A stretch of 64,000 nucleotides of DNA, taken from positions 51,819 through 115,818 of the forward strand of contig JAFSEY010000007.1 of the NCBI GenBank assembly GCA_017435485.1, read 5' to 3'. How positions within the stretch are numbered: the stretch's first letter is position 1; each line of letters starts with the position of its first letter. Origin of the DNA: Bacilli bacterium. Its GTDB lineage: Bacteria; Bacillota_I; Bacilli_A; RF39; UBA660. Positions 6,144 through 45,737 of the stretch are shown one piece after another. The position numbers and the translations under genes were made by a program. The notes beneath the pieces are model-generated. The model was given only the letters and a program-made list of their open reading frames with translations. It made no database searches and was not told where the DNA came from.

Positions 6144-6788
6144 TTGATTATTATTTTCATCAACATTAACTTGACCTAGTTCTAAATTTACTTTAGTTTC
6201 AATTTTTAAATTAGGTGTCGTGATATTAATTTGACTAATTAGATATGTTTCTTCGTTATTAATTGTTTGGTTTTCAGTAATCACTTCATATTCTGTAGTT
6301 CCATCAGAAGTTATTTCTGTATACTTATAACTTTTTTTATCTTCATTTTCATTTTGTAAAACTAAATTATTAGCAAATTTAACTATGTATAGCGGATCTT
6401 TTATTCCTTCAAACAAATATGTATCCATTGGTTCTTCATGATCGATAAAAGTTTTGTAGCAAAGACTATTTTCACACCGATAGCTGATTACCTCCGTAGC
6501 AGTTGTTAGGTATCCAGTATGTTTATTACTTGCATATGTTCCATCAAGGATTATTTTAGTATCATTTTCTGTGATAGTTATTTCATAATTAATAGCATTA
6601 CTTGTTTCTTGATAATCCTTTAGTAGTTCTTGAATAGTTATTTCTTTACTATCTTGTTTTTGTTCTTCACTTGTTTTTTGGGTATTATTACCAAGTGAAG
6701 ATAGAATAAATATAAATATAATAAATATCATCCAAAGTCCTAAAATAATCATTGAACGATATCTTTTGTTTTCCCATATTTCTTTCAT
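6141..6788 (-). CDS. Hypothetical membrane-anchored protein
   Basis: 215 aa with a single N-terminal TM (MIILGLWMIFIIFIFILSSL). No recognisable domain. Confidence 0.3.
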   Translation of the reverse strand: MKEIWENKRYRSMIILGLWMIFIIFIFILSSLGNNTQKTSEEQKQDSKEITIQELLKDYQETSNAINYEITITENDTKIILDGTYASNKHTGYLTTATEVISYRCENSLCYKTFIDHEEPMDTYLFEGIKDPLYIVKFANNLVLQNENEDKKSYKYTEITSDGTTEYEVITENQTINNEETYLISQINITTPNLKIETKVNLELGQVNVDENNNQ

Positions 6789-6796
6789 ATTATCAC

Positions 6797-7723: not shown

Positions 7724-7766
7724 TAAAATCATCCTTTATTTTATGTTTAAAGTATATCATAGCCTT

Positions 7767-20480: not shown

Positions 20481-22292
20481 TCATAATTCTTTATAGGCAA
20501 TTCCTTTTACCAAAGCAGTTAAATCGTTTACATTAGGTTTACCATTACTTATTGCATCATCTTTAGTTGCTAAATTCCATATAATTTCAGAATCAGGTAA
20601 TTTATATCTTGCCGTATCTATTTTAGCAATATATGAAGCACAATAAATTACATCATTTATATCAACAGTTCCATTTTGATCCCAATCGCCAGGTTTTCCT
20701 GTAGATGATGTTGGCGGTTCTAATCCGCTTATTGCAACATTTGCAGCAGTTTTATATTCCTTATCCTCCACAGAAGCATAATTTGCAGGAATAGCAATTG
20801 AAGTAACATCATTATTAACTAATAACGGCACAGTTACCGTACCGGAAAGATTATATTTAATTTCTCCAGTTTTTAATCTAACAACTTTTTCTGCACTATC
20901 ATAATTATAATATACCCCATCACTAAAATTACCAAGACTAACTCCATCAGGTAATCTAAAAGCAACTACCGCACCATTAGCTCGACCATTTCCCTCAGTA
21001 AAAGTCTGTTCATGACTGCCTTCCTCTATTCCTTCAGCATATTCCGTATTTTTATTTTTTATAGAAATTTTTAAATCAACTTTCATTTTTCCAGTATTAG
21101 CATCAGTTCCTGTCTTAGTTGCACTAAAAGCATTAATATTCAAGTACGGACCAATACAAAATTCATTAACTCCACTAAGTCCACTAGTATCTTTCGACCA
21201 AGCATCTTCAGTGGAATCAAACTGATAAGGCGTAATACAAATTTGCTTATTTAAAAATTCTTTAGGGATTGTAATTGGAACACTAGCAGTTTCATTTATA
21301 TCTATATTAGGCTCTTTATAAACTAAATTAAAAATCAAATTGCCTTTTCTTTCTAAATTAAGATTAGTAAGAGATGAAACATTACCATATGTAGAATCTT
21401 CCGGCAATCGGATTTGTACCAATTTATTATTATATCCCGAATAATAAGACGCTTCATTTGCCAAAGTAGGACGCGCTACAGGTTTAACTAATTCTTCAGA
21501 ATAATACGTTAGGCCATCTCCAAATTGACCAGATTTTTTGAATTTAACTTTTAACGTTGCTGAATAACCATCATTTCCAGTAGTTAATGGCAAATCATGT
21601 AAATCATTTATAACTTTACCATTACTATCAGTTATAGTAATTTCCTGTCTATTTAATGATTTCATAACATTAAACGTAAGTACCTTATAGTGTTGATTAG
21701 TACTACTAAGATTAGAATAACCACTATCCGTAAAACCTTTAACATCTGCAGACATCTTTTTAAGTGTACCATACATAGTATCTTGACCCACTTCGCCAAC
21801 ATATTTATATTTCACTTCAAAAGTAGCAGTCGTCTTAGCTGGAACTTGACCTAGCCTAAATTCCAAAATTTGTGATGTTTCATTAGCTGCTACAGCTCCA
21901 TCAATATCTTCACATGATCGTAAACATTTAATAGAAACTGTAGAGACATTATCTCCAATTTTATATGTTACAGAATCTTTGAAATCCTTTGTACTAGTAT
22001 TTAAAACTCGCACAGCCTTAGGCCAAGGACGCAATTGTACATACATATAATCACTAGCTTTATCACTATTATTTTTTAATGTTAGATAAAAAACTATGTT
22101 TTCACTTTCGTGAACTGCATACTCTTTTAGCCCAAAATCAATTTCCAAATCTGCACTATTGGCAGTCATAAACTCAATATTTTTAGTTTCTGTTTCAATT
22201 TCTTTTTTACTGTTTTTAAAACCATTAATTTCACCAACATTGACAACAATTATCGATATTAACAGCAAAATAAACAATAGTTTCTTTTTCAT
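20481..22292 (-). CDS. Secreted multidomain protein with a C-terminal type-I dockerin
   Basis: Signal peptide, ~520 aa of unassigned beta-rich domains, then a duplicated Ca-binding dockerin segment: GDWDQNGTVDINDVIYCASYIAK and DDAISNGKPNVNDLTALVKGIAY (D/N at positions 1, 3, 5, 9, 12). Confidence 0.5.
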   Translation of the reverse strand: MKKKLLFILLLISIIVVNVGEINGFKNSKKEIETETKNIEFMTANSADLEIDFGLKEYAVHESENIVFYLTLKNNSDKASDYMYVQLRPWPKAVRVLNTSTKDFKDSVTYKIGDNVSTVSIKCLRSCEDIDGAVAANETSQILEFRLGQVPAKTTATFEVKYKYVGEVGQDTMYGTLKKMSADVKGFTDSGYSNLSSTNQHYKVLTFNVMKSLNRQEITITDSNGKVINDLHDLPLTTGNDGYSATLKVKFKKSGQFGDGLTYYSEELVKPVARPTLANEASYYSGYNNKLVQIRLPEDSTYGNVSSLTNLNLERKGNLIFNLVYKEPNIDINETASVPITIPKEFLNKQICITPYQFDSTEDAWSKDTSGLSGVNEFCIGPYLNINAFSATKTGTDANTGKMKVDLKISIKNKNTEYAEGIEEGSHEQTFTEGNGRANGAVVAFRLPDGVSLGNFSDGVYYNYDSAEKVVRLKTGEIKYNLSGTVTVPLLVNNDVTSIAIPANYASVEDKEYKTAANVAISGLEPPTSSTGKPGDWDQNGTVDINDVIYCASYIAKIDTARYKLPDSEIIWNLATKDDAISNGKPNVNDLTALVKGIAYKEL

Positions 22293-22307
22293 ATTTCCCT
22301 CCTAAAA

Positions 22308-23057
22308 CTATACCCTAAAAAATTTAATAGTTTTTTTGTTTTTTATAGTAATTGCCACAATAACAGCCAATCCACCCATTATGAATAGGAAAGGAAGACT
22401 AATACCAGTATCATTTGGTTCTACAGGACATTGTTTTTCATAATCAAGTTTGCTCACGACATCGCCATTACTACCATAAAAAGTATCATCAACTTTTTTA
22501 CAAATATATTTTTTTTCACTATTTGGTTGAATTGGATCGGTTTCAGGTGTCTCAGTAACTTCTTCGATTCTTTTTACAGTAATACTTGAACCTTCAGTAG
22601 CTACTCCATCTTGAGCTGTATTGCTTATATATCCATCAGCAAAAGACATTTTCACCGAATCTCCAACTTTAAAATCATCAGTCACCTTACAAGTAATCTT
22701 AGCCACCGTTCCTGGATTAGAAAATTCATCTGCTGGATTTTGCGCATATACCACTATAACTAATCCAGCAGTCACTGTGAACACGCCCGTTCCCGCAGCA
22801 GTACATTCTTTAATATTTGAAGGTAATTTTTTTAAAGTCAAATTTGAATCATCATTAAATATAAAATCATTTGCTTGTATTCCTCCGACTTTCATATCAG
22901 AATCACCTGGTTTTCCATTAACAGTTAATCCAACAGTAAAAGAATCTCCGCTAAAAGTGGTATCTCCTGTAAGCTCAATAGAATCAGCACATACAATTTC
23001 TGCCGTAAAAACAAACATTGATATTAATAATATTATAATTGAATTGAATTTTTTCAT
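22308..23057 (-). CDS. Cohesin-domain protein with a C-terminal transmembrane anchor
   Basis: Signal peptide, then a ~140-aa cohesin-like beta-sandwich (FTVGLTVNGKPGDSDMKVGGIQANDFIFNDDSNLTL...GVFTVTAGLV...GTVAKITCKVTDDFKVGDSVKMSF), a Thr/Pro linker, and a C-terminal TM (LPFLFIMGGLAVIVAITI) plus KNKK tail. Confidence 0.4.
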   Translation of the reverse strand: MKKFNSIIILLISMFVFTAEIVCADSIELTGDTTFSGDSFTVGLTVNGKPGDSDMKVGGIQANDFIFNDDSNLTLKKLPSNIKECTAAGTGVFTVTAGLVIVVYAQNPADEFSNPGTVAKITCKVTDDFKVGDSVKMSFADGYISNTAQDGVATEGSSITVKRIEEVTETPETDPIQPNSEKKYICKKVDDTFYGSNGDVVSKLDYEKQCPVEPNDTGISLPFLFIMGGLAVIVAITIKNKKTIKFFRV

Positions 23058-23602
23058 TTTTTCTTACCTCTCTTACTCTTATTATTTTTTATTATCAGCA
23101 TTCCAACACATCCCGTTAATAAAGTGATTATTGGAACTAAAATATAAATATAATTTATTTTTTTAGTAATTTCCATTGTCAAATTAACATCGTCAGCTTC
23201 TAATAATGTTTCTGCATCAGCAGCTTGAATATTTCTCAAATTAACAATTGTAGAACCAGTTTTCTTTGTTTTAAATTCTAAAACCCCAACCACATTATCC
23301 TTAGTATCTATATTTAATCTATAAGCTACAATCCTTTCACCAATCATTAAATTAAAATTACTTCTTGATTCATAGTTTACTAATTCTAAATAATCCTTAT
23401 CATATTCTAAATCTGCTTGCACCCCATACAAATTAAAATCTATGGATTCATAATAAATCGGAATCCTTATTACTTTGTTTTTTTCTGCACTCAACTTTAC
23501 TTCATCACTAAATTTTTCATCAAACCCAATTTGTACTCTTTGAGCAAATACAACCGGTAATGATAAAAAAAATACTGTCAGCACTAATAATATTTTTTTC
23601 AT
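23054..23602 (-). CDS. Second cohesin-like protein with a C-terminal transmembrane anchor
   Basis: Signal peptide, a cohesin-like domain (KVIRIPIYYESIDFNLYGVQADLEYDKDYLELVNYES...VGVLEFKTKKTGSTIV), a C-terminal TM (IYILVPIITLLTGCVGMLII) and a KSKRGKKK tail. Overlaps the previous gene by 4 nt. Confidence 0.4.
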   Translation of the reverse strand: MKKILLVLTVFFLSLPVVFAQRVQIGFDEKFSDEVKLSAEKNKVIRIPIYYESIDFNLYGVQADLEYDKDYLELVNYESRSNFNLMIGERIVAYRLNIDTKDNVVGVLEFKTKKTGSTIVNLRNIQAADAETLLEADDVNLTMEITKKINYIYILVPIITLLTGCVGMLIIKNNKSKRGKKK

Positions 23603-23806
23603 TTACATCCCTTTCTAATAAATAATATAATCTTTTTATACTATCCTTTATTATCAATTCAAGTATACTATTAAAACAGCTTCGAGTCAACTAGATATCC
23701 TTTTCAGATAATTAGTTTACATCCTTTAAATATATTATTTCTTATTTTTATATTTAACGGAAACTCCCAAATAAATACACTTTTTAACCACAAAAAACAA
23801 CTGAAA

Positions 23807-24400
23807 TTAATCAATTGTCTTAGCATACAAACAGCCACAATAATTTTGGCGATATAAATTATACTTTTTTGCTAGCTCAATACTTTTTAAATAGCCATCA
23901 TTTTTCTTAAAGTCACCATATAAATATTTTATCCCTAATTCTTCTTCTATTAATCTACCTAGTTCATTTATTAATTGACTATTTTTGTGGGGTGAAACAG
24001 TTAATGTTGTTGCAAAATAATCAAATTGGTTTTCTTTAGCAACTAAAGCTATTTTACGCATTCTTAGTCCAATGCATTTTTCACACCTTTTGCCACCTTC
24101 TTTTTCCAGCTCTAAACCCTCTACTACCTTTTCATAATCTTCACCATGATAGTCGCAATCTAAATAAGATACATCATCTAATTGATTTAGTAATTTAATT
24201 TGTTCTTTTTTTCTTTTTTCATATTCTTCAATAGGTTGGATATTTGGATTATAATAAATAACTGTTATATCAAAATAATCTTTCATAACATTGATAACAT
24301 GTGTTGAACAAGGCCCACAACAACTATGTAACAGCACTTTGGGACGCCCTTGTAAATTTTTGACAATTTCTTCAAATACTAAATCATAATTTGTTTTCAT
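23807..24400 (-). CDS. queH: Epoxyqueuosine reductase QueH (DUF208)
   Basis: LLHSCCGPCS and the CEKC..C...CGC cysteine clusters typical of QueH. Confidence 0.7.
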   Translation of the reverse strand: MKTNYDLVFEEIVKNLQGRPKVLLHSCCGPCSTHVINVMKDYFDITVIYYNPNIQPIEEYEKRKKEQIKLLNQLDDVSYLDCDYHGEDYEKVVEGLELEKEGGKRCEKCIGLRMRKIALVAKENQFDYFATTLTVSPHKNSQLINELGRLIEEELGIKYLYGDFKKNDGYLKSIELAKKYNLYRQNYCGCLYAKTID

Positions 24401-24403
24401 TTT

Positions 24404-25150
24404 TTATTCACTACCTATATCTTCTTTATCTTTAGATTCATAAGCCTTAAAACTAGCATTATCACGATTAGAATTTAAATAAATATATCCGTGAACTTCT
24501 TCATCTAAAGTTGCACAAATTTTTTGATAATTATTTAATTTTTCTAAATTGATTGTATCAATATAAACTGTATTAGTATCACTCATACGAAAGATAAAAC
24601 GATTTTCATCTATTATTGTTCCATTTTTTTCATCAGGACTATATTCTATTTCACTTATTTCTCCAACAATATCATTATTTAATTCAGAAAATCTACTTAT
24701 CAAATCATTTAATATATTGCTTGGAACATAATTTATGACAACCGGAATTCCTAAATATTTTTGTTCATCTTTAATAGCTTTACCATTGCTTAAATATATT
24801 TCATTATTACTACGATAATAAAATAGCGGTTTAGCTTCAGTTACTTTAATGGTTATTTTTCCAAAGATATTTTTACTCACCTTAACATCATCTACTAATT
24901 CTAATTTTTTAATATTTTGAGCTATTTTACTCTTATTTATTTTAACTAAAGGCGGATAGTTTTTTAAACCTGCAATATCAATTATTTCTTGATCTTCTAT
25001 TAAATTAGTACCTAGTATATAAATATTTTTTATTGGTAAAGTAAAAAGATAATAACCAAAAGATGCAATTAAATATATAAACAATACAATAAATAATAAT
25101 GATCTAATTCTTATTTTCTTTTTATTCTTTTTTGTCATAATTACTCCCAA
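24404..25150 (-). CDS. divIB: Cell division protein DivIB/FtsQ
   Basis: Short cytoplasmic N-terminus, one TM, then POTRA and beta domains. Sits immediately downstream of murB as in Firmicutes dcw clusters. Confidence 0.6.
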   Translation of the reverse strand: MGVIMTKKNKKKIRIRSLLFIVLFIYLIASFGYYLFTLPIKNIYILGTNLIEDQEIIDIAGLKNYPPLVKINKSKIAQNIKKLELVDDVKVSKNIFGKITIKVTEAKPLFYYRSNNEIYLSNGKAIKDEQKYLGIPVVINYVPSNILNDLISRFSELNNDIVGEISEIEYSPDEKNGTIIDENRFIFRMSDTNTVYIDTINLEKLNNYQKICATLDEEVHGYIYLNSNRDNASFKAYESKDKEDIGSE

Positions 25151-26037
25151 TTTACAAATTCTGGTTCTACTATTAAATCGATATTATTATTTTCCAAAAC
25201 TTTGCTATGGATTAAGTCAATTAAATCTCTAACATCTTGAGAAGAAGCATTATTATAATTAATGATAAAGTTAGCGTGTTTTTCACTTACTTTTGCTCCT
25301 CCAATTGTTTTTCCTTTTAATTTTACATCGCATTCAATAATTCTTCCAGCAAAATCTCCTTCAGGGTTTCTAAAGATACTACCTGCTGATGGATATTCGA
25401 GAGGCTGAGATTCTACTCTTCTAGTTCTTCTGTCTTCCATAACTTTTAAAGATTCTTCTTTATTACCAGGCTTTAAACCAAATACAGCGCTTATAACAAC
25501 TAAATCTTTTAATTTGTCTTTAAGTGAAGAATGACGATATTGAAAATCTATTTCATTAGCTTTAAGAGTTTTAATGTTTCCATTTTTATCAATAACAGTA
25601 ACGTTTATAAGAAAATCAGAAATCTCTGATTTGTATGCTCCGGCATTTCCAACGATACTACCTCCAACTGTTCCGGGTATTCCAGATGCCCATTCTAATC
25701 CTTGTAAATTATTATTCACACATGTTTGAACAAGCTTAGGTAACATCACTCCGGCTTCAGCAGTTACTTGTAAGCCATCTATTTCAACGTTATTTAATTT
25801 ATCTAGTTTAATAATTGCACCATCATACGTTTTATCACTAAATATTACATTAGAACCATTTCCTAAAATCATATATTTAATTTGATTAGCATTTAAAAAT
25901 TTAATTAATTCTTGTAAAGATTCTACATCATTTGGAATAACAATGTATTTAGCAATACCTCCAATACGGTAAGTATTATATTTTTTTAAAGAAACATTTT
26001 CTAATACTTCACCATATTTATTTAATTTATCGATCAT
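25141..26037 (-). CDS. murB: UDP-N-acetylenolpyruvoylglucosamine reductase
   Basis: FAD-binding N-terminus (GGIAKYIV...GNGSNV), catalytic region (GNAGAYK ... SAGSIFRNP). Confidence 0.85.
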   Translation of the reverse strand: MIDKLNKYGEVLENVSLKKYNTYRIGGIAKYIVIPNDVESLQELIKFLNANQIKYMILGNGSNVIFSDKTYDGAIIKLDKLNNVEIDGLQVTAEAGVMLPKLVQTCVNNNLQGLEWASGIPGTVGGSIVGNAGAYKSEISDFLINVTVIDKNGNIKTLKANEIDFQYRHSSLKDKLKDLVVISAVFGLKPGNKEESLKVMEDRRTRRVESQPLEYPSAGSIFRNPEGDFAGRIIECDVKLKGKTIGGAKVSEKHANFIINYNNASSQDVRDLIDLIHSKVLENNNIDLIVEPEFVNWE

Positions 26038-27116
26038 TTTATCAATTCCTTTATTTCATTATAAATAGTATCAGCACTATTTATCGTATTCATCTTTTTA
26101 ATATTATGTTTTAATTCATAATATTTTTCCTTATCATATAAGATATTGTTAATTAATGCAATTAAAACTTTACTATTAAAATCTTTTTCTTCTAACATAT
26201 AAGCAGCATTTTTCTTTTTTAATTCTAAGGCATTATAGTATTGATGGTTACCAGCTACAAAGGGAGATGGAATATAAATGGCTGGTAATTCTAAAGCTTG
26301 AGCTTCGGTAATTATCCCTGCTCCTGCTCTTGATACTAACAAGTCTGCACTTTTCATAATTCCAGATAAGTTATTTAAATATGGTTTAACTACGACATTT
26401 TTAGGAAATTCTTCATTTTTGATAAATTCATCGTAATGACTGTTGCCGGTAATATATAGCACTTGAAACTTAGCATCTTCTATTAAATGTAAAAACTCTT
26501 TGAATTTAGTATTTAATGTAGCACTACCTAGGCTACCTGCTACTATAATTACTAATTTTTCTTTAGGATTTAAACCTAATTCTTTTATATTTACTTTTGT
26601 AGCTTTTAAAGCCCTATTACCACTCGGATTACCTGTATAGATAACTTTTTTGGCTTGTCTAAAATACTTTTTACTTTCTTCAAAAGAAATCCCTACCATG
26701 GAAACTAGCCTAGACAATAATATATTACTTTTTCCTGGTATACTGTTTTGTTCATGAATAAAAGTTTTTATTTTCAACTTGTTAGCTGCTTTGATAACCG
26801 GATATGTAACATATCCACCTACTCCTATTACTATATCGGGTTTAAATTTTTTCATAATTTTCAAACATTTTTTGTATGCTTTCCTAATTAAAAATAAATT
26901 TTTTATATCTCTCCCAATTAATTTTTTGCTAAAACCATATATTTCTAGTTCTTCATATTTGATATTCTCTTTAGGAACAATATCTTTTTCCATTCTATTA
27001 TGAGTACCAATATAAATTACTTCTAAATTTTTATCTTTTTCTTTAAACTTTTCAATGATAGCTAAAGCTGGATAAATATGACCTCCGGTTCCTCCGGCTG
27101 ATACAATTATTCTCAT
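26034..27116 (-). CDS. murG: UDP-GlcNAc:undecaprenyl-PP-MurNAc-pentapeptide GlcNAc transferase
   Basis: MRIIVSAGGTGGHIYPALAI N-terminus, C-terminal GT-B domain. Confidence 0.85.
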   Translation of the reverse strand: MRIIVSAGGTGGHIYPALAIIEKFKEKDKNLEVIYIGTHNRMEKDIVPKENIKYEELEIYGFSKKLIGRDIKNLFLIRKAYKKCLKIMKKFKPDIVIGVGGYVTYPVIKAANKLKIKTFIHEQNSIPGKSNILLSRLVSMVGISFEESKKYFRQAKKVIYTGNPSGNRALKATKVNIKELGLNPKEKLVIIVAGSLGSATLNTKFKEFLHLIEDAKFQVLYITGNSHYDEFIKNEEFPKNVVVKPYLNNLSGIMKSADLLVSRAGAGIITEAQALELPAIYIPSPFVAGNHQYYNALELKKKNAAYMLEEKDFNSKVLIALINNILYDKEKYYELKHNIKKMNTINSADTIYNEIKELIK

Positions 27117-27127
27117 ACGTCACCTCT

Positions 27128-28456
27128 TTAATTTTTATTTTGATGTTTTAAGATATATTCTTGATAATGCTTGCTTTTGTCTGCATAATTTTTAAAAACA
27201 TTATAACTAGGAGCAGCCGGCGAAAGCAAGACAGCATTGTTTTTCTTGGTTATTTCAAAAGCCTTATCAACGGCATCTTCTAACTTTTCAATATAATAAA
27301 TATTTTTAGAACAATTCTTAACTAAACTTTCATATATATATTTTCCGGTATCTGGTTGGCAAATTATATTTTCCAATTTGCTATTAGCTAAAAACTCAAT
27401 AAAACTATCATAATTAATATTACGATCCATTCCGCCGATAATTAAGGTTTCGATATTAGGAATGGCTAAGATGGAATTTTGCGTAGCAGCTGGAATTGTT
27501 GCTAAGGTATCATCATAAAAATTGATATCATTAACAGTAGCAATTAAACTCATCCGATGCTCTAACCCTTTAAAATTAGTAATTGTACGTCTAACTTTTT
27601 CTAAATCTAAATTTAACAGTTTTGCTACTTGTAAAGCCATCATAATATTTAAACTATTAAAATCTCCAATTAAGTTTCTTTTTAGATTCAAATCGAATAT
27701 TTCATTGTCATCTAAATAAATCTTATTATGTTTTATATTATCTTTACCAAGTCCAATTAAAGTACTTTTAATATTAGTTTTAGCTATATTATGAATTAAA
27801 TCATCATTGTCTTTTAAATATATGCCATAGTTATCTTCACTTTGATATCTAAACATATTTAATTTGCCATGATAGTAATTATCTATAGTTTTAAAGTAGT
27901 CCAAATGTTCTTCAAATAAATTGGTTATAATTCCAATATTTGGTGATCTTTTTATATCATATAGTTGATGACCACTCATTTCAGCAACAATGATACTATC
28001 TTCATTAAAATCATCGATTAAATCAAAAATAGGAATACCAATATTACCCACTAAATAAACATTATCATTTTGCGCTTTTATTATTTCATAAATCAAACTA
28101 GTAGTTGTACTTTTTCCTTTGGTACCAGTTACACCGATCACAAAAGCAGCAGTAAAATTTAATAATAACGAAAATTGGGATACAATCTCACATTTATATT
28201 CTTTATCTATTAAACAAATTCCTGGGGTTTTGATAACTACTTCATACTTATCTAAATTATCTAGATAGGTTGCACCAAGAACATATTTTGTATTTTCATA
28301 ATCCACTTTTTCAATGTTCTCATTTTGATCTATTATTGTTATTTCTTTATCCGGTAAATATCTTCTTAAAAAATTATAAGTAGACTTACCTTCCAACCCA
28401 AAACCTAAGATAGCAATTTTTTTATCTTTTAAATAATCTAAAATAGCATTAATCAT
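27128..28456 (-). CDS. murD: UDP-N-acetylmuramoyl-L-alanine--D-glutamate ligase
   Basis: Mur ligase: GVTGTKGKSTTTSLIYEII P-loop, middle and C-terminal domains present. Confidence 0.85.
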   Translation of the reverse strand: MINAILDYLKDKKIAILGFGLEGKSTYNFLRRYLPDKEITIIDQNENIEKVDYENTKYVLGATYLDNLDKYEVVIKTPGICLIDKEYKCEIVSQFSLLLNFTAAFVIGVTGTKGKSTTTSLIYEIIKAQNDNVYLVGNIGIPIFDLIDDFNEDSIIVAEMSGHQLYDIKRSPNIGIITNLFEEHLDYFKTIDNYYHGKLNMFRYQSEDNYGIYLKDNDDLIHNIAKTNIKSTLIGLGKDNIKHNKIYLDDNEIFDLNLKRNLIGDFNSLNIMMALQVAKLLNLDLEKVRRTITNFKGLEHRMSLIATVNDINFYDDTLATIPAATQNSILAIPNIETLIIGGMDRNINYDSFIEFLANSKLENIICQPDTGKYIYESLVKNCSKNIYYIEKLEDAVDKAFEITKKNNAVLLSPAAPSYNVFKNYADKSKHYQEYILKHQNKN

Positions 28457-29783
28457 TTTTATTCATCTGCCTTTTTATAATATTTTCAAATTCTAATGGA
28501 AGTAAATGATCTGTGTTATATTCATCTAGTAATTCATCTTCTATAAGCTCAAAATTTTCTTTATAATATTTTAATAAATATGGTAAGTTTTCTTTATTTT
28601 TCTTTATTGCTTTACTTACAGCATAACCCACTTCTTCAACTGTTCCGACACATTCAAAAGGTTTAGTTTCTTTTTTTCCTAATAATTCTAAGAAAGTATC
28701 TAAAAGTTTTTCATCTTCATATAAATTTTTACCAAAGATATCACTTAAATATTCTAAATCCAAAAAGGGGCTTAGAATTATAAAAACAAATAAACACTTT
28801 GGACAATCACCACACCATTTCCAAGGAAGGGTTTTACTTCCCACATTACAGCTTTTAAAAATATGATGATATTTTTCTAATTTAGAAAATAAATATGCTA
28901 TTTGAATTTCTTTTAAAGGGCGAAGAACAGAAAAATAATGAATATCTAAATTAAAGTATTTTCTAGTATAGTTATTAAAATCTTTTTCAAATTCAATACT
29001 TTTAGAATATTGGTGATTAATTTTAGTATTTAAAACTGTTGGTTCATTAGCACTACTTTCGTTAGATAATACGATATATTTTCGATTAGTTAAGTAAGCT
29101 ATTAAATAACTATAAAAAGCTACTATACTACTAAATGGTGTATGTCCATTTAAATAACCTTGTTTGTTTAAAGAAAGCATATTTTGATCAAGAATCCTTG
29201 TTACATTGATATTGTCATATCCAGCAACTTCAATGCACTTTTCATGTATTTCTTTAGCATTAATTGTAAAACAAACATTGTCCATATCTTTTAAAGTTTC
29301 TAAACTAACGATGGAATCTTTTCCCCCACCAACACAAATAATATTTCCAGAAGATTTAAAATCTGGATCAGCATAATTTATTTTATCTTTTTGACATTTA
29401 AAAGAAACTAAAGCATCTTCAGTTACATCTATATTATTTACGTAAAAAAATTCTCCTAATCCAAGAAAATAAAGTTTACGCCACCAATTTAAAGCGCTTT
29501 CATCTAAATAACCAGCTTTAATAATAAAATTTTTAGGACAACTTACTTTGTAATAACTAATAGCTTCTGCCATACCAATATTAAATATTAAATATTTTAA
29601 TAATTCTTTATTAATATTTTGATTAGTTATAATATTTTTAGCAACTTTAAAACAAGGATTAAACGTCGATAATCCTTCAATTTCCATATTATATGTTACA
29701 ACTAAACTATCATCTATTTCTTCAATTTTATAATCATGATATATAAAATTAGAATACATACTTCTAAGTTCATTAAAATTCAT
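28449..29783 (-). CDS. PP-loop (adenine-nucleotide alpha-hydrolase) superfamily protein of unknown function, translationally coupled to murD
   Basis: 444 aa with ~150 aa of N-terminal domain, then a PP-loop-like ICVGGGKDSIVSL motif and a C-terminal Cys cluster (CNVGSK...WKWCGDCPKC). No N-terminal glutaminase domain. Its stop overlaps the murD start by 8 nt. Confidence 0.4.
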   Translation of the reverse strand: MNFNELRSMYSNFIYHDYKIEEIDDSLVVTYNMEIEGLSTFNPCFKVAKNIITNQNINKELLKYLIFNIGMAEAISYYKVSCPKNFIIKAGYLDESALNWWRKLYFLGLGEFFYVNNIDVTEDALVSFKCQKDKINYADPDFKSSGNIICVGGGKDSIVSLETLKDMDNVCFTINAKEIHEKCIEVAGYDNINVTRILDQNMLSLNKQGYLNGHTPFSSIVAFYSYLIAYLTNRKYIVLSNESSANEPTVLNTKINHQYSKSIEFEKDFNNYTRKYFNLDIHYFSVLRPLKEIQIAYLFSKLEKYHHIFKSCNVGSKTLPWKWCGDCPKCLFVFIILSPFLDLEYLSDIFGKNLYEDEKLLDTFLELLGKKETKPFECVGTVEEVGYAVSKAIKKNKENLPYLLKYYKENFELIEDELLDEYNTDHLLPLEFENIIKRQMNKND

Positions 29784-29855
29784 ACAGGTTCACCTAATAA
29801 AATTATACAATAAAACCCCAAATTAAAACACAACTTTTTACAAAATTGTGTCAAC

Positions 29856-30218
29856 TTAATAATAATTTAAATCTTTTACTTGCAGAACTTTTTCTTCGCC
29901 TACAATATTTATTAAGGTTATTTTTTTGTCTTCATTCATTAATTCGGTAATAAATTCATTATTTATATAATTAAAATATTTAAAATTAACTTTATTTACC
30001 ATTATATAAATTTCTTTCATATCTTCTTTTTTATACCCTTTTACAATTGCCTTGCTTAACGCGGCTTGTTCTGCGGTTATGCAATCGCGAAATACGGGAT
30101 TTTTGATAGAAACTCCCGTAAATGCATGATCATCATTTGTTAAAACGATGGCGCTATATCCAATATAGTCATTAGGATGATAAGCATTTTTTAATAAATC
30201 AAATAATCTTTCATACAT
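29856..30218 (-). CDS. Cytidine-deaminase-fold protein lacking the zinc-binding motifs (degenerate Cdd paralog)
   Basis: Length and fold match Cdd (YSAIVLTNDDHAFTGVSIKN...AEQAALSKAIVKGYK...IYIMV), but CITAE replaces the C/HAE motif and the PCxxC motif is absent. Confidence 0.45.
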   Translation of the reverse strand: MYERLFDLLKNAYHPNDYIGYSAIVLTNDDHAFTGVSIKNPVFRDCITAEQAALSKAIVKGYKKEDMKEIYIMVNKVNFKYFNYINNEFITELMNEDKKITLINIVGEEKVLQVKDLNYY

Positions 30219-30231
30219 ATTTCTTCACCTT

Positions 30232-31107
30232 TTATTCTTTTATTATTACAACTTCTTCTAAAAACTTTTGATAATTTTTTTGATCAAAAGATAAATAAAC
30301 TATATTTTTATTATCTTTGGAAAATCCAACTAACATATAATAGTTGTTTTCATAATATATGTACCCTTCAGTTTCTTCATCTAAAATACCTAAATAACTA
30401 TATTCACTATTTAATAAAATATTTTTATAGCTTGTTAAGATGTCATTGGGGATTTCTTCATTTGTTTGAATAGTTATTTCTTCAGCTTCAATATTGTCTT
30501 CTATTCCTTTTAGGCTCATTGCCATAAAGGTATTATCATAATTGGTAATTTTGTATAATGTTGGAACGGAAATGTTATTTAATATTATATATTCTTGCTT
30601 ATCATAATCATCAAATTGAATTTTAGAATTTTCGGTAAAAGTGTAAAAAACTATTAATCCAACTATCGATATAATAGATAAAACCAAACATATTGTGTCC
30701 TTTTTCTGAGAATTTTTTAATATCTTACCAGTATATCCTAATATAGCAATAAATAAAGGTATACAAATCACTATATAAATAATAGTTTTTATAATTTTAA
30801 CTAACTCATTAATGTTTAACACCTTACTGTCCAACGCAAAACAAAAAACCATGATTATAAAAGCAAGTAAAAATGGGCCGAAAGAAAACAATAGAAATAA
30901 ACCGATAAATAATTTCAATCCAAAAGATGAAGATATAGCGTGTTTTCTTCCACACCTTGGGCAAACTGATGTTTTATAATTTATGTTTGTTCCGCAATAA
31001 TTGCATATCGCTTCGATTTTAGATTTATTCTTTTCGAAATTATGGCCACAAAACGGACATTTTATAGTATCGTTATTGATTTCATGATTACAATTTATAC
31101 ATTTCAT
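30232..31107 (-). CDS. Membrane protein with an N-terminal double zinc ribbon
   Basis: CINC..CPFCG...CNYCG...CPRCG, then four TM helices and a ~120-aa C-terminal domain. Confidence 0.35.
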   Translation of the reverse strand: MKCINCNHEINNDTIKCPFCGHNFEKNKSKIEAICNYCGTNINYKTSVCPRCGRKHAISSSFGLKLFIGLFLLFSFGPFLLAFIIMVFCFALDSKVLNINELVKIIKTIIYIVICIPLFIAILGYTGKILKNSQKKDTICLVLSIISIVGLIVFYTFTENSKIQFDDYDKQEYIILNNISVPTLYKITNYDNTFMAMSLKGIEDNIEAEEITIQTNEEIPNDILTSYKNILLNSEYSYLGILDEETEGYIYYENNYYMLVGFSKDNKNIVYLSFDQKNYQKFLEEVVIIKE

Positions 31108-31112
31108 ACTCC

Positions 31113-31274
31113 TTACACCCGCTTTTCTTTACTATTTATTAATATTTTACCATTATCATATTGATAATTTAAAGAGTTAGTTTTGCTAAGAACTGACTTA
31201 CCAAGCTTTTGTTTTAAATTATGGTGAGCATTTTTAGCAACTTGATATTTTCCATCTTTCGCTTCAAATTTCAT
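31113..31274 (-). CDS. Possible small protein (53 aa) in an operon with the Zn-ribbon membrane protein
   Basis: Not in the ORF track. Reverse-strand translation gives MKFEAKDGKYQVAKNAHHNLKQKLGKSVLSKTNSLNYQYDNGKILINSKEKRV. It ends 6 nt before the downstream gene's start, but has only a weak SD. Confidence 0.2.
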   Translation of the reverse strand: MKFEAKDGKYQVAKNAHHNLKQKLGKSVLSKTNSLNYQYDNGKILINSKEKRV

Positions 31275-31376
31275 TTACCTGAAAAAAGATTTATTATAGT
31301 ATCTAATTTGTTTTCGGCTATATAATTCTCCTTCAATAGCTATATTGCCAAAAAACAAACTATTTCCTTTTAAAAA

Positions 31377-31781
31377 TCAAATGTTTTTACCATCATTTAA
31401 AAAATCATTATTAAAATCATATGGACAAAGATCTTTAATTTTAAATTGTTTTTCTTCTTTGTCATTATTATAGCAATAAATTATAGTTTCCCTATCAAAG
31501 AATTCATTTAGTAGCTGGCGACACAAAAAGCACGGAACAATAATTTTTTCTCCTAAACCCATAATATAAATACTATCTAGATCACTCCTTTTATATCCGC
31601 TAGATACTGCACTACTTATAGCCACTTGTTCAGCACAAAGTCCATCTTTAGAACTTTTATTTTCAACATTTACACCATAAAATAATTTGCCATCTTTTGC
31701 TTTTATTACACAAGCAACTTGATATTTTGAATATGGCGAATAACTATTTTTTAACAAGTCTTTTAAAATATCTTTTATCAT
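31377..31781 (-). CDS. cdd: Cytidine deaminase (homotetrameric type)
   Basis: Canonical motifs SPYSKYQVACV, CAEQ and PCFLCRQ are all present. Confidence 0.8.
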   Translation of the reverse strand: MIKDILKDLLKNSYSPYSKYQVACVIKAKDGKLFYGVNVENKSSKDGLCAEQVAISSAVSSGYKRSDLDSIYIMGLGEKIIVPCFLCRQLLNEFFDRETIIYCYNNDKEEKQFKIKDLCPYDFNNDFLNDGKNI

Positions 31782-31870: not shown

Positions 31871-33514
31871 TTAATTATTCTTCTTTGTAGTTAAAGAAAA
31901 TTTAAAACCAAATATAGAAACTATAATTAATAATCCATAAAGAATAAAATTATCTCCTGTTGTAGGATTGTTATCAACATTATTTATTGAATCCTTTTCT
32001 TCAGTTTTTGGTTCTTCTTTTACTTCAGTATTATTAGAATCTTCTTTTAGTTCTTCTTTTTCTTGTTTTTCTAAAACTATTTTTTCAAATTCAACTTTTA
32101 TTTCTACATTTTCATTAGGCATGATAAATTTATTATCTTTTACCTCTATTTCATTTGCTGTAACACTTTTTAATTTATAACCTTCTTTTGATATTATTGT
32201 TAGTGTTACGGTTTCACCATTTATTGCTGTATTTTTATCAGACCTAACTGTACCTTCAACTGTTTCTTTTACAGTAATTGTGTATCTAGTTCCAACAATA
32301 TAACTACCATCCTCTTGTTTAGAACTTTCTACATTTTTGTTTATATAATCTTCTATTACGTTAGAACTAAATTCACCACCGGATATAAATTCTTTAACAT
32401 TTTTATCAATATCTAAAGCCGGCTTTTTAGTATCCTCAGCAATAAAAGTACCACCATTAATTAAAAGACCTCCCTCAACTAATGAAGATGAAGTTGTTGT
32501 TTTATTGCCATCTTTATCTGTTGAGATACCTTCATATAAAGCGTTACCATTTTTACTTGTAAAAGTCGCTCCAGATATATTTATTTTAACATTATTAGAA
32601 TAATTTTTTGTGGCTGTAATACTAATTGCAGCTCCTGTAGCCTCTGAACCATTATAGTTTCCACTTGCTGGGTCATAATATTCTCCAGTGGCCGTAAAAT
32701 TTCCTCCTGTTATATTAAACTCTCCTGCTTTAATTGCAGCAGCTTCGGTTCCTGTAATATCACCAGCTGAAATATTCCATTTTGCGTAACCACTTGCAGA
32801 TAATGCTGGCGCACTATCTTTGGCCGGAACTCCAGTTGTACCTACTGTTGTAGTAATCTCTCCTCCTGTTATATTAATCACTGGAATATTTCCACTATCT
32901 TTTTTGATGTTCCCGTTGACAAATATTCCAACACTTCCGTCATTATAACCATTATTACCATTAATTGCGTTAATAGTTCCAGCAAGTTCAACTACAGCAC
33001 CATAAGATGCATTGTTTCCAGCGTGTCTTACAACAATACCATAATTAGCACTTAAACTAGCAGCTTCTTTTATGACAGCAGCAGCTTTTGTTATAGGGTC
33101 AGAATCAGTTTCACTGCCTGTAACACCTATAATTTTTCCACCATTACTAGTATTAGTAAAAGTACCGTTTTCTAATATTAAAGTAGTTCCAGGATACACA
33201 TCAAACATATAACCCGCTGTGTCAGTAGTTATTTTACCATTTCCAGTTATAGTTAGGATTCCACTACCGTTTAAAACAATTGTACTATTAACATCAAGAG
33301 TATGACTATTAAGGTCAATCGTTACCTCTCTACCCCCAGTAATTGTAATTGGGTCTGCCATGGTAAAATCTGATGTTATTTTACAAATGCTTTCAGTACC
33401 ACTTATACAATCACTTAAATCTGTTGAATTTGAAATCGCATTAACGTTTATAGTCAATGCTAGCAATGTTATAACAAACATTGAAAGGTAATTTAATTTC
33501 CTCACTTCTTCCAT
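31871..33514 (-). CDS. Cell-wall-anchored surface protein with parallel beta-helix-like Gly/Thr/Asn-rich repeats and a C-terminal NPTTG sorting signal
   Basis: Signal peptide, then ~350 aa of repetitive G/T/N/A-rich segments (ITGGEITTTVGTTG..., NITGGNFTATG..., ISGATFTSKNG...), a Glu/Lys-rich stalk, and an NPTTG + hydrophobic stretch + KKNN sorting signal (fits the class-B motif NPxTG/N). Confidence 0.5.
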   Translation of the reverse strand: MEEVRKLNYLSMFVITLLALTINVNAISNSTDLSDCISGTESICKITSDFTMADPITITGGREVTIDLNSHTLDVNSTIVLNGSGILTITGNGKITTDTAGYMFDVYPGTTLILENGTFTNTSNGGKIIGVTGSETDSDPITKAAAVIKEAASLSANYGIVVRHAGNNASYGAVVELAGTINAINGNNGYNDGSVGIFVNGNIKKDSGNIPVINITGGEITTTVGTTGVPAKDSAPALSASGYAKWNISAGDITGTEAAAIKAGEFNITGGNFTATGEYYDPASGNYNGSEATGAAISITATKNYSNNVKINISGATFTSKNGNALYEGISTDKDGNKTTTSSSLVEGGLLINGGTFIAEDTKKPALDIDKNVKEFISGGEFSSNVIEDYINKNVESSKQEDGSYIVGTRYTITVKETVEGTVRSDKNTAINGETVTLTIISKEGYKLKSVTANEIEVKDNKFIMPNENVEIKVEFEKIVLEKQEKEELKEDSNNTEVKEEPKTEEKDSINNVDNNPTTGDNFILYGLLIIVSIFGFKFSLTTKKNN

Positions 33515-33646: not shown

Positions 33647-34495
33647 ATGAAAGAAAAAAAGAAGTTCCGTTTAAAGAAAAAATATAGAGCAATAATTAGA
33701 GTTACTTTTTTTACAATTTCTCTAACAATATTTATATTCAGTATATTTAAAATTATCTTATGGAACTTAGAAAATAGAAAAACCGAAAAACTAGAAAAAA
33801 AAATAATAGAAAAAACCGAAATAATTGAAATATCGGAAATAAACAATGAAGAAAACTCTAATTTAGTTAACGAACCAGTATTGCAAACAGACATATATTG
33901 GAAATATAAAGACACAGCGTTAATTGATGTCAATTTAAATGAACTAAAAAAAGATAACAAAGACACTATAGGTTGGATTCAAGTATTAGGGACAGATATT
34001 AATTATCCCTTTGTCCAAAGCGGAGATAATGATTATTATTTAAAACATGATTTTGCTAAAAGTAAAAATACTGGAGGATGGATATTTTTAGATTATCGAA
34101 ACAACATTAATAATTTAAATGATAATAATATTATTTATGGACATATGCGAAAAAACGGCTCAATGTTTGGCAGTTTAAAAAATGTATTAACAAGCAATTG
34201 GCAAAATAATTCCGATAATCATATCGTTAAAATATCTACTGAAGAATATAGTTATTTATTTCAAGTATTTAGCATATATACAATTCCAGTTGAAACATAT
34301 TATATTCAAACTGATTTTAGTGATATTGAAAACTATAAAAATTTTTTAAACACCATTGTCAATCGAAGTATTTATAATTTTAATACAGAAGTTAATGAAA
34401 AAACTAAAGTATTAACTTTATCAACATGTCATAACAATAATGACCGCTTAGTAGTTCACGCCAAATTAATAAAAGCAGAATCTAAAAATAATTAG
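33647..34495 (+). CDS. srtB: Class B sortase
   Basis: N-terminal anchor, then DTIGWIQVLGTDINYPFVQ, GWIFLDYRN, and the catalytic His (YGHM), TLSTCHNNNDRLVVHAKLI (TLxTC) and Arg motifs. Confidence 0.75.
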   Translation: MKEKKKFRLKKKYRAIIRVTFFTISLTIFIFSIFKIILWNLENRKTEKLEKKIIEKTEIIEISEINNEENSNLVNEPVLQTDIYWKYKDTALIDVNLNELKKDNKDTIGWIQVLGTDINYPFVQSGDNDYYLKHDFAKSKNTGGWIFLDYRNNINNLNDNNIIYGHMRKNGSMFGSLKNVLTSNWQNNSDNHIVKISTEEYSYLFQVFSIYTIPVETYYIQTDFSDIENYKNFLNTIVNRSIYNFNTEVNEKTKVLTLSTCHNNNDRLVVHAKLIKAESKNN

Positions 34496-40603: not shown

Positions 40604-41587
40604 TTAATTTAAATATTTTGTTCCAAATTTAAGTTTTGATAATTCACTAAAATCTAAAGAATAGTTACTCACATTTTTAAATAATAGTCCATTATAAAAA
40701 TTATCAGATTCATATTTTACAGAACCAGCAACCGTTGAATCATACCAGTAATAACCATCATCTAACTTAACAAAATTCCATGCATGAGGTCCACTAGTAT
40801 CTCCTAATGCTATTAACGATTCAATCCCCATCCTTTGAAATAAAAGCTGACTAGCAGCTGCAAATCCTGCACAAACACTATCATCTTTCAATAATGCACT
40901 CCAAGCAGTTCCACTTTTATTAGTGGCTAGTAAACTATAGTGAGTAGTTTTACCCAACCATGTATATACACTCTTTACTTTATCATAATCGGTTAAACCT
41001 TCAAAATCTTTTGCTAAGGAATCAATTTTTCTTTGCAACCTTTTTCCAACAAAGAATAATTGTAATTTATTAGTAGTTACATAGTTGTGTTTAATTAAAA
41101 GAACGTCATCACCATCTGTCCAAGAATATCTTGAACTACGATACCAAAAAAAATCAGGATGTTCCATAAGTATAACATCAATTACCTTTATAAAATCATC
41201 AGTACAACTATTAAAGGTTGGGTACCCATAATTTCTACAATCTAACTGTCTTTCAACAATCAAATTTTTTATATCATTAAATGTATCTAAGTAAATCTTT
41301 TTTGCTTGTTCATTTAACAATGATTCATAATATCTACCATCACTATAATATAAATCTGTTGCGTAATGAATAGAATTTTTATCAATATTTTCATTAATTT
41401 TTACAGGTCTAAAATATAAAATATACATATATATAATTAATAGAATTATAATAATACTTACCAAAAAAAATTTAATAATAACTTTTTTTAAATTATTATA
41501 TATATTATCCTCTTGTTCACACACATATATAGTATTTAAAACCTCATTATCTTTATCATTCATACCACGATAACCTACTTCTAACAA
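40604..41587 (-). CDS. Membrane-anchored transglutaminase-like cysteine protease superfamily protein
   Basis: TM (FFLVSIIIILLIIYMYILYF), then a TGc core with the Cys (SVCAGFAAASQLLF), His (GPHAWNFV) and Asp (YWYDST) residues. Confidence 0.5.
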   Translation of the reverse strand: MLEVGYRGMNDKDNEVLNTIYVCEQEDNIYNNLKKVIIKFFLVSIIIILLIIYMYILYFRPVKINENIDKNSIHYATDLYYSDGRYYESLLNEQAKKIYLDTFNDIKNLIVERQLDCRNYGYPTFNSCTDDFIKVIDVILMEHPDFFWYRSSRYSWTDGDDVLLIKHNYVTTNKLQLFFVGKRLQRKIDSLAKDFEGLTDYDKVKSVYTWLGKTTHYSLLATNKSGTAWSALLKDDSVCAGFAAASQLLFQRMGIESLIALGDTSGPHAWNFVKLDDGYYWYDSTVAGSVKYESDNFYNGLLFKNVSNYSLDFSELSKLKFGTKYLN

Positions 41588-41741
41588 GAGTATACAATAA
41601 TATATTTTTATTTACAATAAAAAGGAAAAATCTAGATTAATATTAAAAGTAAAAGTTATCATTAGAAAAAAAATTAACTATTTTACCATACACTTATCGA
41701 AATATATTTAAAAATATTTAATAGATAGATTCAGTCAAATA

Positions 41742-41822
41742 TTATATTCTTATTATGACAATTAAAATCAAAACTACTAAAAAGATATAAATTATTATCG
41801 TATATACGTCATAAAAAAACAT
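41742..41822 (-). pseudogene. Truncated duplicate of the 5' end of the spoVD/PBP gene, with its leader
   Basis: Reverse strand encodes MFFYDVYTIIIYIFLVVLILIVIIRI*, matching the PBP N-terminus MFFNDIHTRIRYVFLVVICLILIVIVRV. The flanking ~95 bp (41753-41846) is ~80% identical to 40343-40440, including the SD region. Confidence 0.55.
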
Positions 41823-41854
41823 ATAATCACTAAATAATTATATGTTTTTTTGCC

Positions 41855-43468: not shown

Positions 43469-43480
43469 GACACCACCTTT

Positions 43481-43840
43481 TTACAAATTTTTATAATTTC
43501 CAATTAAAGTTTTAACTTCAACTACAATATTTTCTAAGCTTTTAATATTTTCATTCACAAAAGCTACATTTCCAGCCTTACTAGCTAATTCGTGTTCATA
43601 AGCTGCATCAGCTAATTTAGTAAGTCCCAAAGTTCTAGCATTGCTTTTTAAAGCATGAACTAAAATTGCATAGTTTGACAAATCATTTATACTATTTTTT
43701 AATGTGTTAAATTGTTCATCTAAACCTTCATAAAACTCTAAAAGAATTTCATGATACATCTGCAAATCTCCAGTATAATTAATTACTGTATTTAAATCTA
43801 TTCCGGCAGTAACTAAGTAATTTTTTTGATTCTCACTCAT
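43481..43840 (-). CDS. Histidine phosphotransfer (Hpt) protein
   Basis: 119 aa, four-helix-bundle pattern with HALKSNARTLGL (HxxKGxxxxxG). Confidence 0.65.
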   Translation of the reverse strand: MSENQKNYLVTAGIDLNTVINYTGDLQMYHEILLEFYEGLDEQFNTLKNSINDLSNYAILVHALKSNARTLGLTKLADAAYEHELASKAGNVAFVNENIKSLENIVVEVKTLIGNYKNL

Positions 43841-43879
43841 TTTAAACTTCCCTTCTATTATTTATTTTAACATAATAAA

Positions 43880-45724: not shown

Positions 45725-45737
45725 ATAAAATCACCTC

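Follow-up and report, generated by a model that had tools for sequence, protein, structure and literature searches.

The locus considered here raises the question of what is encoded by an open reading frame (ORF) of 444 amino acids that runs into the start of murD within a dcw cluster. The ORF occupies positions 28449..29783 on the minus strand of the window (the whole stretch of DNA that was analysed, 64 kb in length), starts with ATG and lies beyond chance, as the identical protein is recorded in NCBI and in other assemblies. An earlier note on this DNA, which gave no strand for the ORF, had described the product as an "unknown" PP-loop protein tied to murD, and had proposed it as a candidate for modifying the peptidoglycan stem peptide by amidation, with a dependence on ammonia or on a partner protein.

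The sole NCBIfam match of the ORF was NF041275 (MurL; E 7e-75, aa 73-395), and the precomputed Pfam annotation of the identical protein consists of MurL_N (PF26299) and MurL_epimerase_C (PF26298). The HMM search that had been suggested as a check thus returned a known family in place of an "unknown" one, and not a tRNA-modifying enzyme. BLASTP against the annotated MurL of X. sacchari gave an identity of 34% over 320 aa (E 7e-62); the motifs GGGKDS, NGH.P, SNE.SA, INHQ.SK, LRPL.E, SCN, WCG.CPKC and KPFECVG are common to both proteins, and the family-invariant residues of the window protein are all present in the Xanthomonas enzyme. With 252 bits, the match falls below the curated cut-off of 700 bits of the NF041275 equivalog (MurL_Xanthmoales), a clade-specific model built for Xanthomonadales only; by sequence, the window protein is placed in the wider MurL family, outside this narrow equivalog, and pipelines consequently label it hypothetical. 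The Pfam scan of the ORF yielded only DUF6395, at a sub-threshold score, because the scanned copy did not contain the two MurL models (PF26299 and PF26298). A PDB sequence search with the protein found no relative.

The AF2 model of MurL (pLDDT 94.1, pTM 0.92) has a PP-loop/QueC-like fold. The N-terminal domain, MurL_N (aa 1-~135; 29379..29783, minus strand), is composed of a beta-sheet and helices, contains the family-invariant residues Y77 and K79, and may bind the substrate. It is followed by a Rossmann-like alpha/beta PP-loop (adenine-nucleotide alpha-hydrolase) domain (aa ~145-300; 28884..29351, minus strand), in which R196, G213-H214-x-P216, S244, N256-H257-Q258-x-S260-K261 and S285 are invariant. 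The mid-sequence GGGKDS seen in the earlier note is present as G152-G-G-K-D-S157 (29313..29330, minus strand, codons verified), a variant of SGGxDS with the first Ser changed to Gly, which aligns with SGGQDS of E. coli QueC; it comes after the first strand of the domain (147-150) and opens the helix 155-163, as is typical of the PP-loop ATP pyrophosphatase superfamily, and its residues G153, G154 and D156 are invariant across the family, Xanthomonas and Pseudonocardia included. The Cys cluster (C312-x11-C324-x2-C327-x2-C330; 28794..28850, minus strand) likewise exists, but at ~70-75% along the protein and short of the extreme C-terminus. All four of its Cys residues are invariant and align with C-x8-C-x2-C-x2-C of E. 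coli QueC, a likeness that suggests a structural Zn site of the QueC type. In the C-terminal helical domain, K374, P375 and C378 of the motif K374-P-F-E-C378 (28650..28664, minus strand) are invariant family-wide, and C378 is located outside the Cys4 cluster. Candidate acid/base residues are C378, H214 and H257, with C378 as a candidate for C-alpha proton exchange.

The genes murL and murD (27128..28456, minus strand; TIGR01087 murD, E 5e-84) overlap by 8 nt (ATGATTAA; 28449..28456, minus strand), and the murD ATG lies within the last murL codons, an arrangement suggestive of translational coupling that had been read correctly from the start. They are followed on the same strand by murG (26034-27116), murB (25141-26037) and divIB/ftsQ (24404-25150), three ORFs with overlapping or near-abutting ends that were named from the Pfam families of identical genes on contig L003, and by queH (23807-24400), which belongs to the same gene string five genes downstream of murL. 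The order of the dcw genes, all on one strand, is mraZ, rsmH, PBP, (inserted two-component genes), PBP, mraY, ftsW, tmk ... murL, murD, murG, murB, divIB, queH. Terminator-like sites were not found between these genes, the single one in 23500-31400 being within coding sequence and at chance level; the promoter scan (63 found, 58.8 expected) is uninformative at 27% GC. The dcw murD is the sole Mur ligase within the 64-kb window, whose ORFs yielded no Asp/Glu racemase or class-IV aminotransferase (murI or D-amino-acid aminotransferase).

MurL homologues form more than 8000 clusters at 90% identity and 2695 clusters at 50% identity, and at least 597 species genomes, the majority from gut and rumen Bacillota, carry a homologue together with this gene partner, murD. 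Among the best 80 of at least 597 GTDB species loci, murD is located directly downstream of murL on the same strand in 79, whereas the rest of the dcw context is not conserved in 74. Of 56 evaluable loci, 44 show a murL stop that overlaps the murD start; in X. sacchari, too, murL precedes murD, and the two genes overlap by 20 nt. Fusion proteins of both orders, MurL-MurD and MurD-MurL, exist. Co-occurrence with murD across genomes, a further check named in the earlier note, therefore upholds the functional tie to murD that had been assumed there. In a related genome (L027), a canonical murD was found beside the murL-murD pair; the MurL route thus need not be the sole one.

The partner ligase was examined at five positions (E. 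coli numbering 182/319/348/414/416), which read E/L/R/P/Y in the window MurD, E/I/R/P/F in X. sacchari MurD2 and D/K/K/A/L in E. coli MurD. In X. oryzae MurD2, E197 and R358 (D182 and K348 in E. coli) set the specificity for L-Glu, and the exchange K319T makes E. coli MurD accept L-Glu (PMC8788868). The window MurD agrees with X. oryzae MurD2 at E197 and R358 (Glu and Arg). All 79 MurL-linked MurDs have Arg at 348 and Ile or Leu at 319. Asp at 182, as in E. coli, occurs in 22 of these 79, and Arg348 is also present in 119 of 120 canonical Firmicute MurDs, so that Arg alone is not diagnostic and only position 319 divides the two classes cleanly. Lys319 is kept in all 120 canonical Firmicute MurDs, in E. 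coli MurD and in three PDB MurDs (among the matches listed); its loss as a discriminator of MurD2 is a proposal of the present analysis, prompted by the literature result for K319T. The overall identity to X. sacchari MurD2 is 23% for the window MurD and 28% for E. coli MurD; the window protein is no closer, and the MurD2 call accordingly depends on just a few signature residues. Orthology with Xanthomonas MurD2 is not claimed at 23% identity, the specificity residues being all that is common to both. Judged from these residues, the neighbouring "D-glutamate ligase" annotation is probably wrong in its substrate.

MurL (XOO_1319) and MurD2 (XOO_1320) are known from Xanthomonas oryzae, and orthologues from Micromonospora and Salinispora have been assayed (Feng et al. 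2017; PMC8788868, PMC5808125). Ligation of L-Glu, conversion of ATP to AMP and unidirectional epimerisation are properties of the Xanthomonas, Micromonospora and Salinispora enzymes (PMC8788868, PMC5808125). On the evidence of homology, the ORF very probably encodes MurL and would form, with the overlapping MurD2-type ligase, a two-step alternative route to peptidoglycan D-Glu. The function is carried over from the assayed enzymes across 34% identity and across phyla, and the chemistry is most likely epimerisation via an acyl-adenylate. Of the stem-peptide modification proposed earlier, the Glu position would thus stand and amidation would give way to an epimerisation driven by ATP, which converts the terminal Glu from L to D only and for which neither ammonia nor a glutaminase partner is expected.

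In the proposed mechanism, the MurD2-type ligase would attach L-Glu to the cell-wall precursor, and MurL would then flip L-Glu to D-Glu. The PP-loop (G152GGKDS) would bind ATP-Mg, and the alpha-carboxylate of the terminal L-Glu would be adenylated with release of PPi. The C-alpha proton, activated and acidified in this way, would be removed and put back from the opposite face, the inversion proceeding either directly, by an enolate step, or through a 5(4H)-oxazolone formed with the carbonyl of the preceding Ala, and hydrolysis would follow. The use of ATP would make the reaction one-way, L to D, and the tight overlap of murL and murD would keep both enzymes in step. The PP-loop/QueC-like fold would explain in structural terms why MurL needs ATP and turns it into AMP, and it agrees with the ATP-to-AMP stoichiometry published for MurL.

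The same chemistry could serve another role, the window MurD being mainly a D-Glu ligase and MurL repairing or backing up mis-incorporated L-Glu, or supplying a specialised wall (spore cortex) beside a MurI route. Room for this is left by the scope of the analysis, a 64-kb window of the genome, by the two kinds of murD in L027, by the spore-forming character of the organism (SpoIVA and SpoIIIAH are present) and by the report that S. mutans MurD takes a little L-Glu (PMC8788868). It is nevertheless improbable, as the MurL-linked murD occupies the housekeeping dcw cluster, with no other Mur ligase in the 64 kb, and its product has lost Lys319, invariant in canonical MurDs, and carries the Glu and Arg that set the preference for L-Glu.

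A PP-loop amidotransferase dependent on ammonia or a partner, which would adenylate and amidate a stem-peptide carboxylate (the D-Glu alpha-carboxyl to iso-Gln, or mDAP) like AsnB/LtsA or, functionally, MurT/GatD, is very improbable. QueC turns a carboxylate into an amide with ammonia, and it is this amide-forming enzyme that is the closest structural relative of MurL; the PP-loop fold itself and the conserved murD linkage would also suit an amidotransferase. So would the lack of a glutaminase domain, which was stated in the earlier note and agrees with the Pfam and NCBIfam scans of the 444-aa ORF. The window protein does not have the N-terminal glutaminase plus Asn_synthase domains of AsnB/LtsA. 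Against amidation, the characterised MurL enzymes require nothing but ATP and Mg for epimerisation and use no nitrogen donor, the invariant residues of the family are all those of the Xanthomonas enzyme, and the L-Glu-type residues of the partner MurD call for an epimerase, not an amidase.

A QueC-like deazapurine/queuosine enzyme, placed in the dcw string by chance only and linked functionally to queH, is hardly credible: QueC is the best structural match, the Cys4 clusters align, and queH stands in the same gene string in an arrangement that recurs in L009, but neither Pfam nor NCBIfam gave a QueC match (E up to 0.1), and hhalign of a family profile with the single E. coli QueC sequence gave a probability of 9%, the motif alignment being sensible and serving here for nothing beyond locating the Cys cluster. 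The protein is also double the length of QueC and has N- and C-terminal domains specific to MurL. Next to murL, queH is present in only 1 of 80 other loci, murD in 79 of 80, and fusions occur with MurD and MurE and none with Que proteins.

The window MurL, read as an epimerase, is an unannotated member of a known family in a bacterial group for which the pathway has no earlier report. Reviews of 2018 and 2021 describe MurL as lacking known conserved domains, list no more than a few genera of Proteobacteria and Actinobacteria and term the pathway a narrow-spectrum target (PMC8788868, PMC5808125). A literature search for MurL with a PP-loop or in Firmicutes returned nothing relevant, most "MurL" matches being misprints of MurI. 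In gut Bacillota, the MurL family is much more widespread than published accounts indicate. A wider proposal, put forward tentatively, is that the MurD2/MurL route may be a common D-Glu source, and in many lineages the only one, in gut and rumen Bacillota (uncultured Bacilli, Lachnospiraceae, Ruminococcus, Oscillospiraceae, Erysipelotrichaceae), maybe also in some Bacteroidales and Saccharibacteria, and that MurL may derive from QueC, as a Zn-containing adenylating enzyme of the PP-loop type that inverts the activated C-alpha with Cys378 and/or His214 or His257. The assignment to MurL would give a defined place in cell-wall synthesis to a protein so far called hypothetical and to its thousands of relatives from metagenomes. 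Abundant commensals would probably be struck as well by inhibitors of MurL or MurD2, and the PP-loop/QueC-like fold yields a short list of MurL residues for mutation.

Compared with the Xanthomonas system, the PP-loop and Cys-cluster core is homologous (34% identity to the X. sacchari orthologue, with all invariant motifs in common), murL precedes murD with overlapping ends, and the partner ligase has the MurD2 specificity residues E, R, Ile/Leu, P and an aromatic one. The host differs, being an uncultured, spore-forming Bacilli MAG with 27% GC in place of Proteobacteria or Actinobacteria; the window pair lies inside the dcw cluster, where it replaces the usual murD, and the N- and C-terminal ~70 residues of the window MurL are unaligned. 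QueC (7-cyano-7-deazaguanine synthase) and the QueC-like Cap9 of CBASS have the PP-loop and the C...CxxCxxC cluster at the same place, and they activate a carboxylate with ATP to give AMP, as is proposed for the window MurL. Unlike these proteins, MurL gives no significant sequence-family match to them and has Gly for the first PP-loop Ser; it adds an N-domain of ~135 aa and a C-terminal helical domain of ~110 aa to the single domain (~220 aa) of QueC. Its substrate would be a UDP-muramyl dipeptide, and the outcome would be C-alpha inversion followed by hydrolysis, with no amide, nitrile or conjugate. MurL resembles QueC in the adenylation step, then, and is not a member of the QueC family. 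With AsnB/LtsA it has the PP-loop superfamily in common; these amidotransferases act on stem-peptide carboxylates by way of an acyl-adenylate, as is proposed for MurL. In physiological terms the result would be that of the glutamate racemase MurI, the canonical supplier of D-Glu, with D-Glu placed second in the stem peptide; whereas MurI is a cofactor-independent two-Cys racemase that acts reversibly on free Glu, MurL is unrelated to it in fold and would act on a nucleotide-linked dipeptide, with consumption of ATP and in one direction.

The 444-aa open reading frame at 28449..29783 (minus strand, ATG start), described in the earlier note as a PP-loop ATPase of unknown family, is genuine, and its placement by HMM search assigns it to a known family, MurL. 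The sole NCBIfam match was NF041275 (UDP-N-acetyl-alpha-D-muramoyl-L-alanyl-L-glutamate epimerase, MurL; E 7e-75, 252 bits, aa 73-395), and the precomputed Pfam domains of the exact protein were PF26299 (MurL_N) and PF26298 (MurL_epimerase_C). The identical protein is named 'hypothetical protein IJO33_02770 [Bacilli bacterium]' by NCBI because 252 bits lie below the 700-bit cut-off of NF041275, a Xanthomonadales-specific equivalog. A separate Pfam scan, using a model set without PF26299 and PF26298, yielded only a weak, sub-threshold match to DUF6395 (E 0.004, nt 28515-28955, i.e., aa 276-423 in the C-terminal half of MurL), which hints at a relationship between DUF6395 and the C-terminal domain of MurL.

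The adjacent murD (27128..28456, minus strand; TIGR01087, E 5e-84) has its start codon within the final codons of murL at ATGATTAA, with the 8-nt overlap noted earlier. The proposed dcw context is likewise confirmed by the same-strand gene string (minus), which runs mraZ, rsmH, class-B PBP, two-component insert, second PBP, mraY, ftsW, tmk, several small genes, murL, murD, murG, murB, divIB and queH. No intergenic terminator was predicted between murL and murD..divIB; the promoter scan was uninformative, its predictions being about as frequent as chance alone would give in DNA of 27% GC. Neither murE nor murF occurs in the dcw cluster, and murD encodes the only Mur ligase in the 64-kb window. 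The genes inserted between the two class-B PBP genes (40604-47603, minus strand) code for two hybrid histidine kinases, an HD-domain response regulator and a protein resembling transglutaminases. Directly 5' of murL, a 120-aa gene (29856-30218, minus strand) encodes a degenerate cytidine-deaminase-like protein (TIGR01354, E 3e-11, under the cut-off; PCxxC zinc motif missing), found at the same position on the near-identical contigs L002-L004; a regular cdd (134 aa, 31377-31781, minus strand) lies 1.2 kb further 5'. The window also encodes three secreted or membrane-anchored proteins without Pfam match (20481-23602, minus strand), a large InlB B-repeat surface protein (31871-33514, minus strand) and a sortase (33647-34495, plus strand).

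Relatives were found in at least 597 species when GTDB species were scanned at one genome each; this is a lower bound, since sequences of the Xanthomonas type would escape the peptide patterns employed. The best 80 of these loci came from Bacillota, comprising uncultured Bacilli, Erysipelotrichaceae and Clostridia (Lachnospiraceae, Ruminococcus flavefaciens, Pseudobutyrivibrio xylanivorans DSM 14809, Roseburia, Oscillospiraceae), and from MAGs labelled, as recorded, Bacteroidales or Bacteroidetes (three) and Saccharibacteria (one). The coupling to murD claimed for the window recurs in this co-occurrence analysis: a same-strand murD homologue directly follows murL in 79 of the best 80 loci, with stop and start codons overlapping in 44 of 56 evaluable cases, and at 74 of the 80 no other part of the window's dcw neighbourhood is close by. 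Judged by gene order, the conserved unit is the murL-murD two-gene pair. At the lone locus without downstream murD (L017:2043-3314), MurL is C-terminally shorter (423 aa) and the ORFs after it are unrelated; this may reflect a broken assembly or be a genuine exception. An Erysipelotrichaceae MAG carries a 365-aa ORF without Pfam match between murL and murD, overlapping murL (L025:7331-8428), and the MurL of the Saccharibacteria-labelled MAG (L057:6001-7416) contains a Cys/Gly-rich stretch of some 21 inserted residues, CEGVQDCGGDLAKGCAGGDLA, right after SNExSANE. In a Bacilli MAG (L027:3503-4867 and 5980-8692) a canonical-type murD (Lys319, Trp416) is located 1.1 kb 5' of a murL-murD2 pair; a single genome can therefore hold both ligase types.

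X. oryzae has no MurI; its MurL, XOO_1319, converts terminal L-Glu to D-Glu in a unidirectional reaction in which one ATP yields AMP (Ogasawara and Dairi reviews, PMC8788868; PMC5808125). Residues E197 and R358 of X. oryzae MurD2 correspond to D182 and K348 of E. coli MurD, and their double mutant acquires D-Glu specificity; P433 and F435 (E. coli A414 and L416) are among the residues setting stereospecificity, and E. coli MurD K319T accepts L-Glu (PMC8788868). At positions 182/319/348/414/416 (E. coli numbering) the window MurD has E/L/R/P/Y, X. sacchari MurD2 E/I/R/P/F and E. coli MurD D/K/K/A/L. Of the 79 other MurL-linked MurDs, 74 have Ile and 5 have Leu at position 319, all have Arg at 348, 57 have Glu and 22 have Asp at 182, and each has Tyr or Phe at 416. 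Lys319 was present in all 120 canonical Firmicute MurDs of a control set obtained with the unlinked L027 paralogue as query (T/A/V at 182, Trp at 416), and the DSK motif is also retained in the PDB MurDs of S. agalactiae and T. maritima and in 7sir. On these alignments, loss of Lys319 thus sets the MurL-linked class cleanly apart, which Arg348 by itself does not.

The PP-loop assignment of the earlier note stands. GGGKDS (aa 152-157, nt 29313-29330, minus strand) and the cysteine cluster C312-x11-C324-x2-C327-x2-C330 (nt 28794-28850, minus strand) were both located, and the fold is QueC-like. In a weak profile-to-sequence alignment with E. coli QueC (probability 9%), GGGKDS pairs with SGGQDS and the four cysteines pair with the C-x8-C-x2-C-x2-C cluster of QueC, which is a zinc site in that enzyme. 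The AlphaFold2 model (59-sequence alignment) reached a pLDDT of 94.1 and a pTM of 0.92; structural matches cover neither the N-terminal ~135 nor the C-terminal ~110 residues, and no MurL structure was found in the PDB by sequence search or Foldseek. Family-wide invariants, judged with Xanthomonas and Pseudonocardia sequences included, are Y77, K79, G153, G154, D156, R196, G213, H214, P216, S244, N256, H257, Q258, S260, K261, S285, C312, C324, C327, C330, K374, P375, C378 and E384. The PP-loop accounts for the conversion of ATP to AMP by MurL, for which a rationale had been missing. In the proposed mechanism, the alpha-carboxylate of Glu would be adenylated with release of PPi, the C-alpha proton would exchange on the activated species (as enolate or oxazolone), and hydrolysis would come last, with C378, H214 and H257 as candidate acid/base residues.

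The earlier interpretation is thus partly right, in the PP-loop, the coupling to murD and the probable action on the stem-peptide Glu, and partly wrong, in taking the family as unknown and in the amidation. The accompanying proposal of stem-peptide amidation is unlikely and was dropped: characterised MurL members require no nitrogen donor, the target shares its invariant residues with them, and its partner is a probable L-Glu-type ligase, which needs an epimerase. That the pair has an accessory or back-up role, as the L027 genome with its additional canonical murD might suggest, is improbable for the window, where the murD of the dcw cluster is the one linked to murL and the sole Mur ligase gene, and where neither a racemase nor a class-IV aminotransferase was found in 64 kb. 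A queuosine role (QueC fold, nearby queH) was rejected, since just one of the best 80 of at least 597 loci has queH nearby.

A 50%-identity library held 2695 family representatives (E up to 1e-3), many of about 900 aa. By NCBIfam these include MurL-MurD and MurD-MurL fusions and one MurE-MurL fusion; a fused ORF of 865 aa was seen in a genome (L048). MurL-MurD is the common type; beside it stand the MurE-MurL protein of 932 aa and a MurL-MurD-M20 amidohydrolase triple fusion of 1247 aa (protein ids P0251 and P0150), both putative and possibly gene-calling artefacts. Stand-alone MurL-like genes (29-32% identity, every invariant residue retained) occur on Pseudonocardia plasmids (L087:3782-5182, P. 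alni pPaSha1; NZ_CP010991.1; NZ_CP011869.1). On L087, the sole plasmid inspected, the gene is flanked by HTH and WD40 protein genes and has no murD neighbour, which points to another substrate in this branch.

MurL has been reported from some Gamma- and Alphaproteobacteria and rare actinobacteria (PMC8788868; PMC5808125). A tblastn search of a plasmid collection recovered a 508-kb Xanthomonas sacchari replicon on which annotated murL is followed by murD with a 20-nt overlap; its MurL shares 34% identity with the target over 320 residues (E 7e-62) and all conserved motifs. The window MurD is 23% identical to X. sacchari MurD2 and 28% to E. coli MurD, so that overall identity gives no grouping with Xanthomonas MurD2. 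A literature search returned no paper linking MurL to PP-loop enzymes. With the target, the known MurL/MurD2 system gains a new member that had lacked annotation. Beyond the available literature go the wide occurrence of the family in gut and rumen Bacillota and its PP-loop fold of the QueC type, the latter perhaps already noted by Pfam curators.
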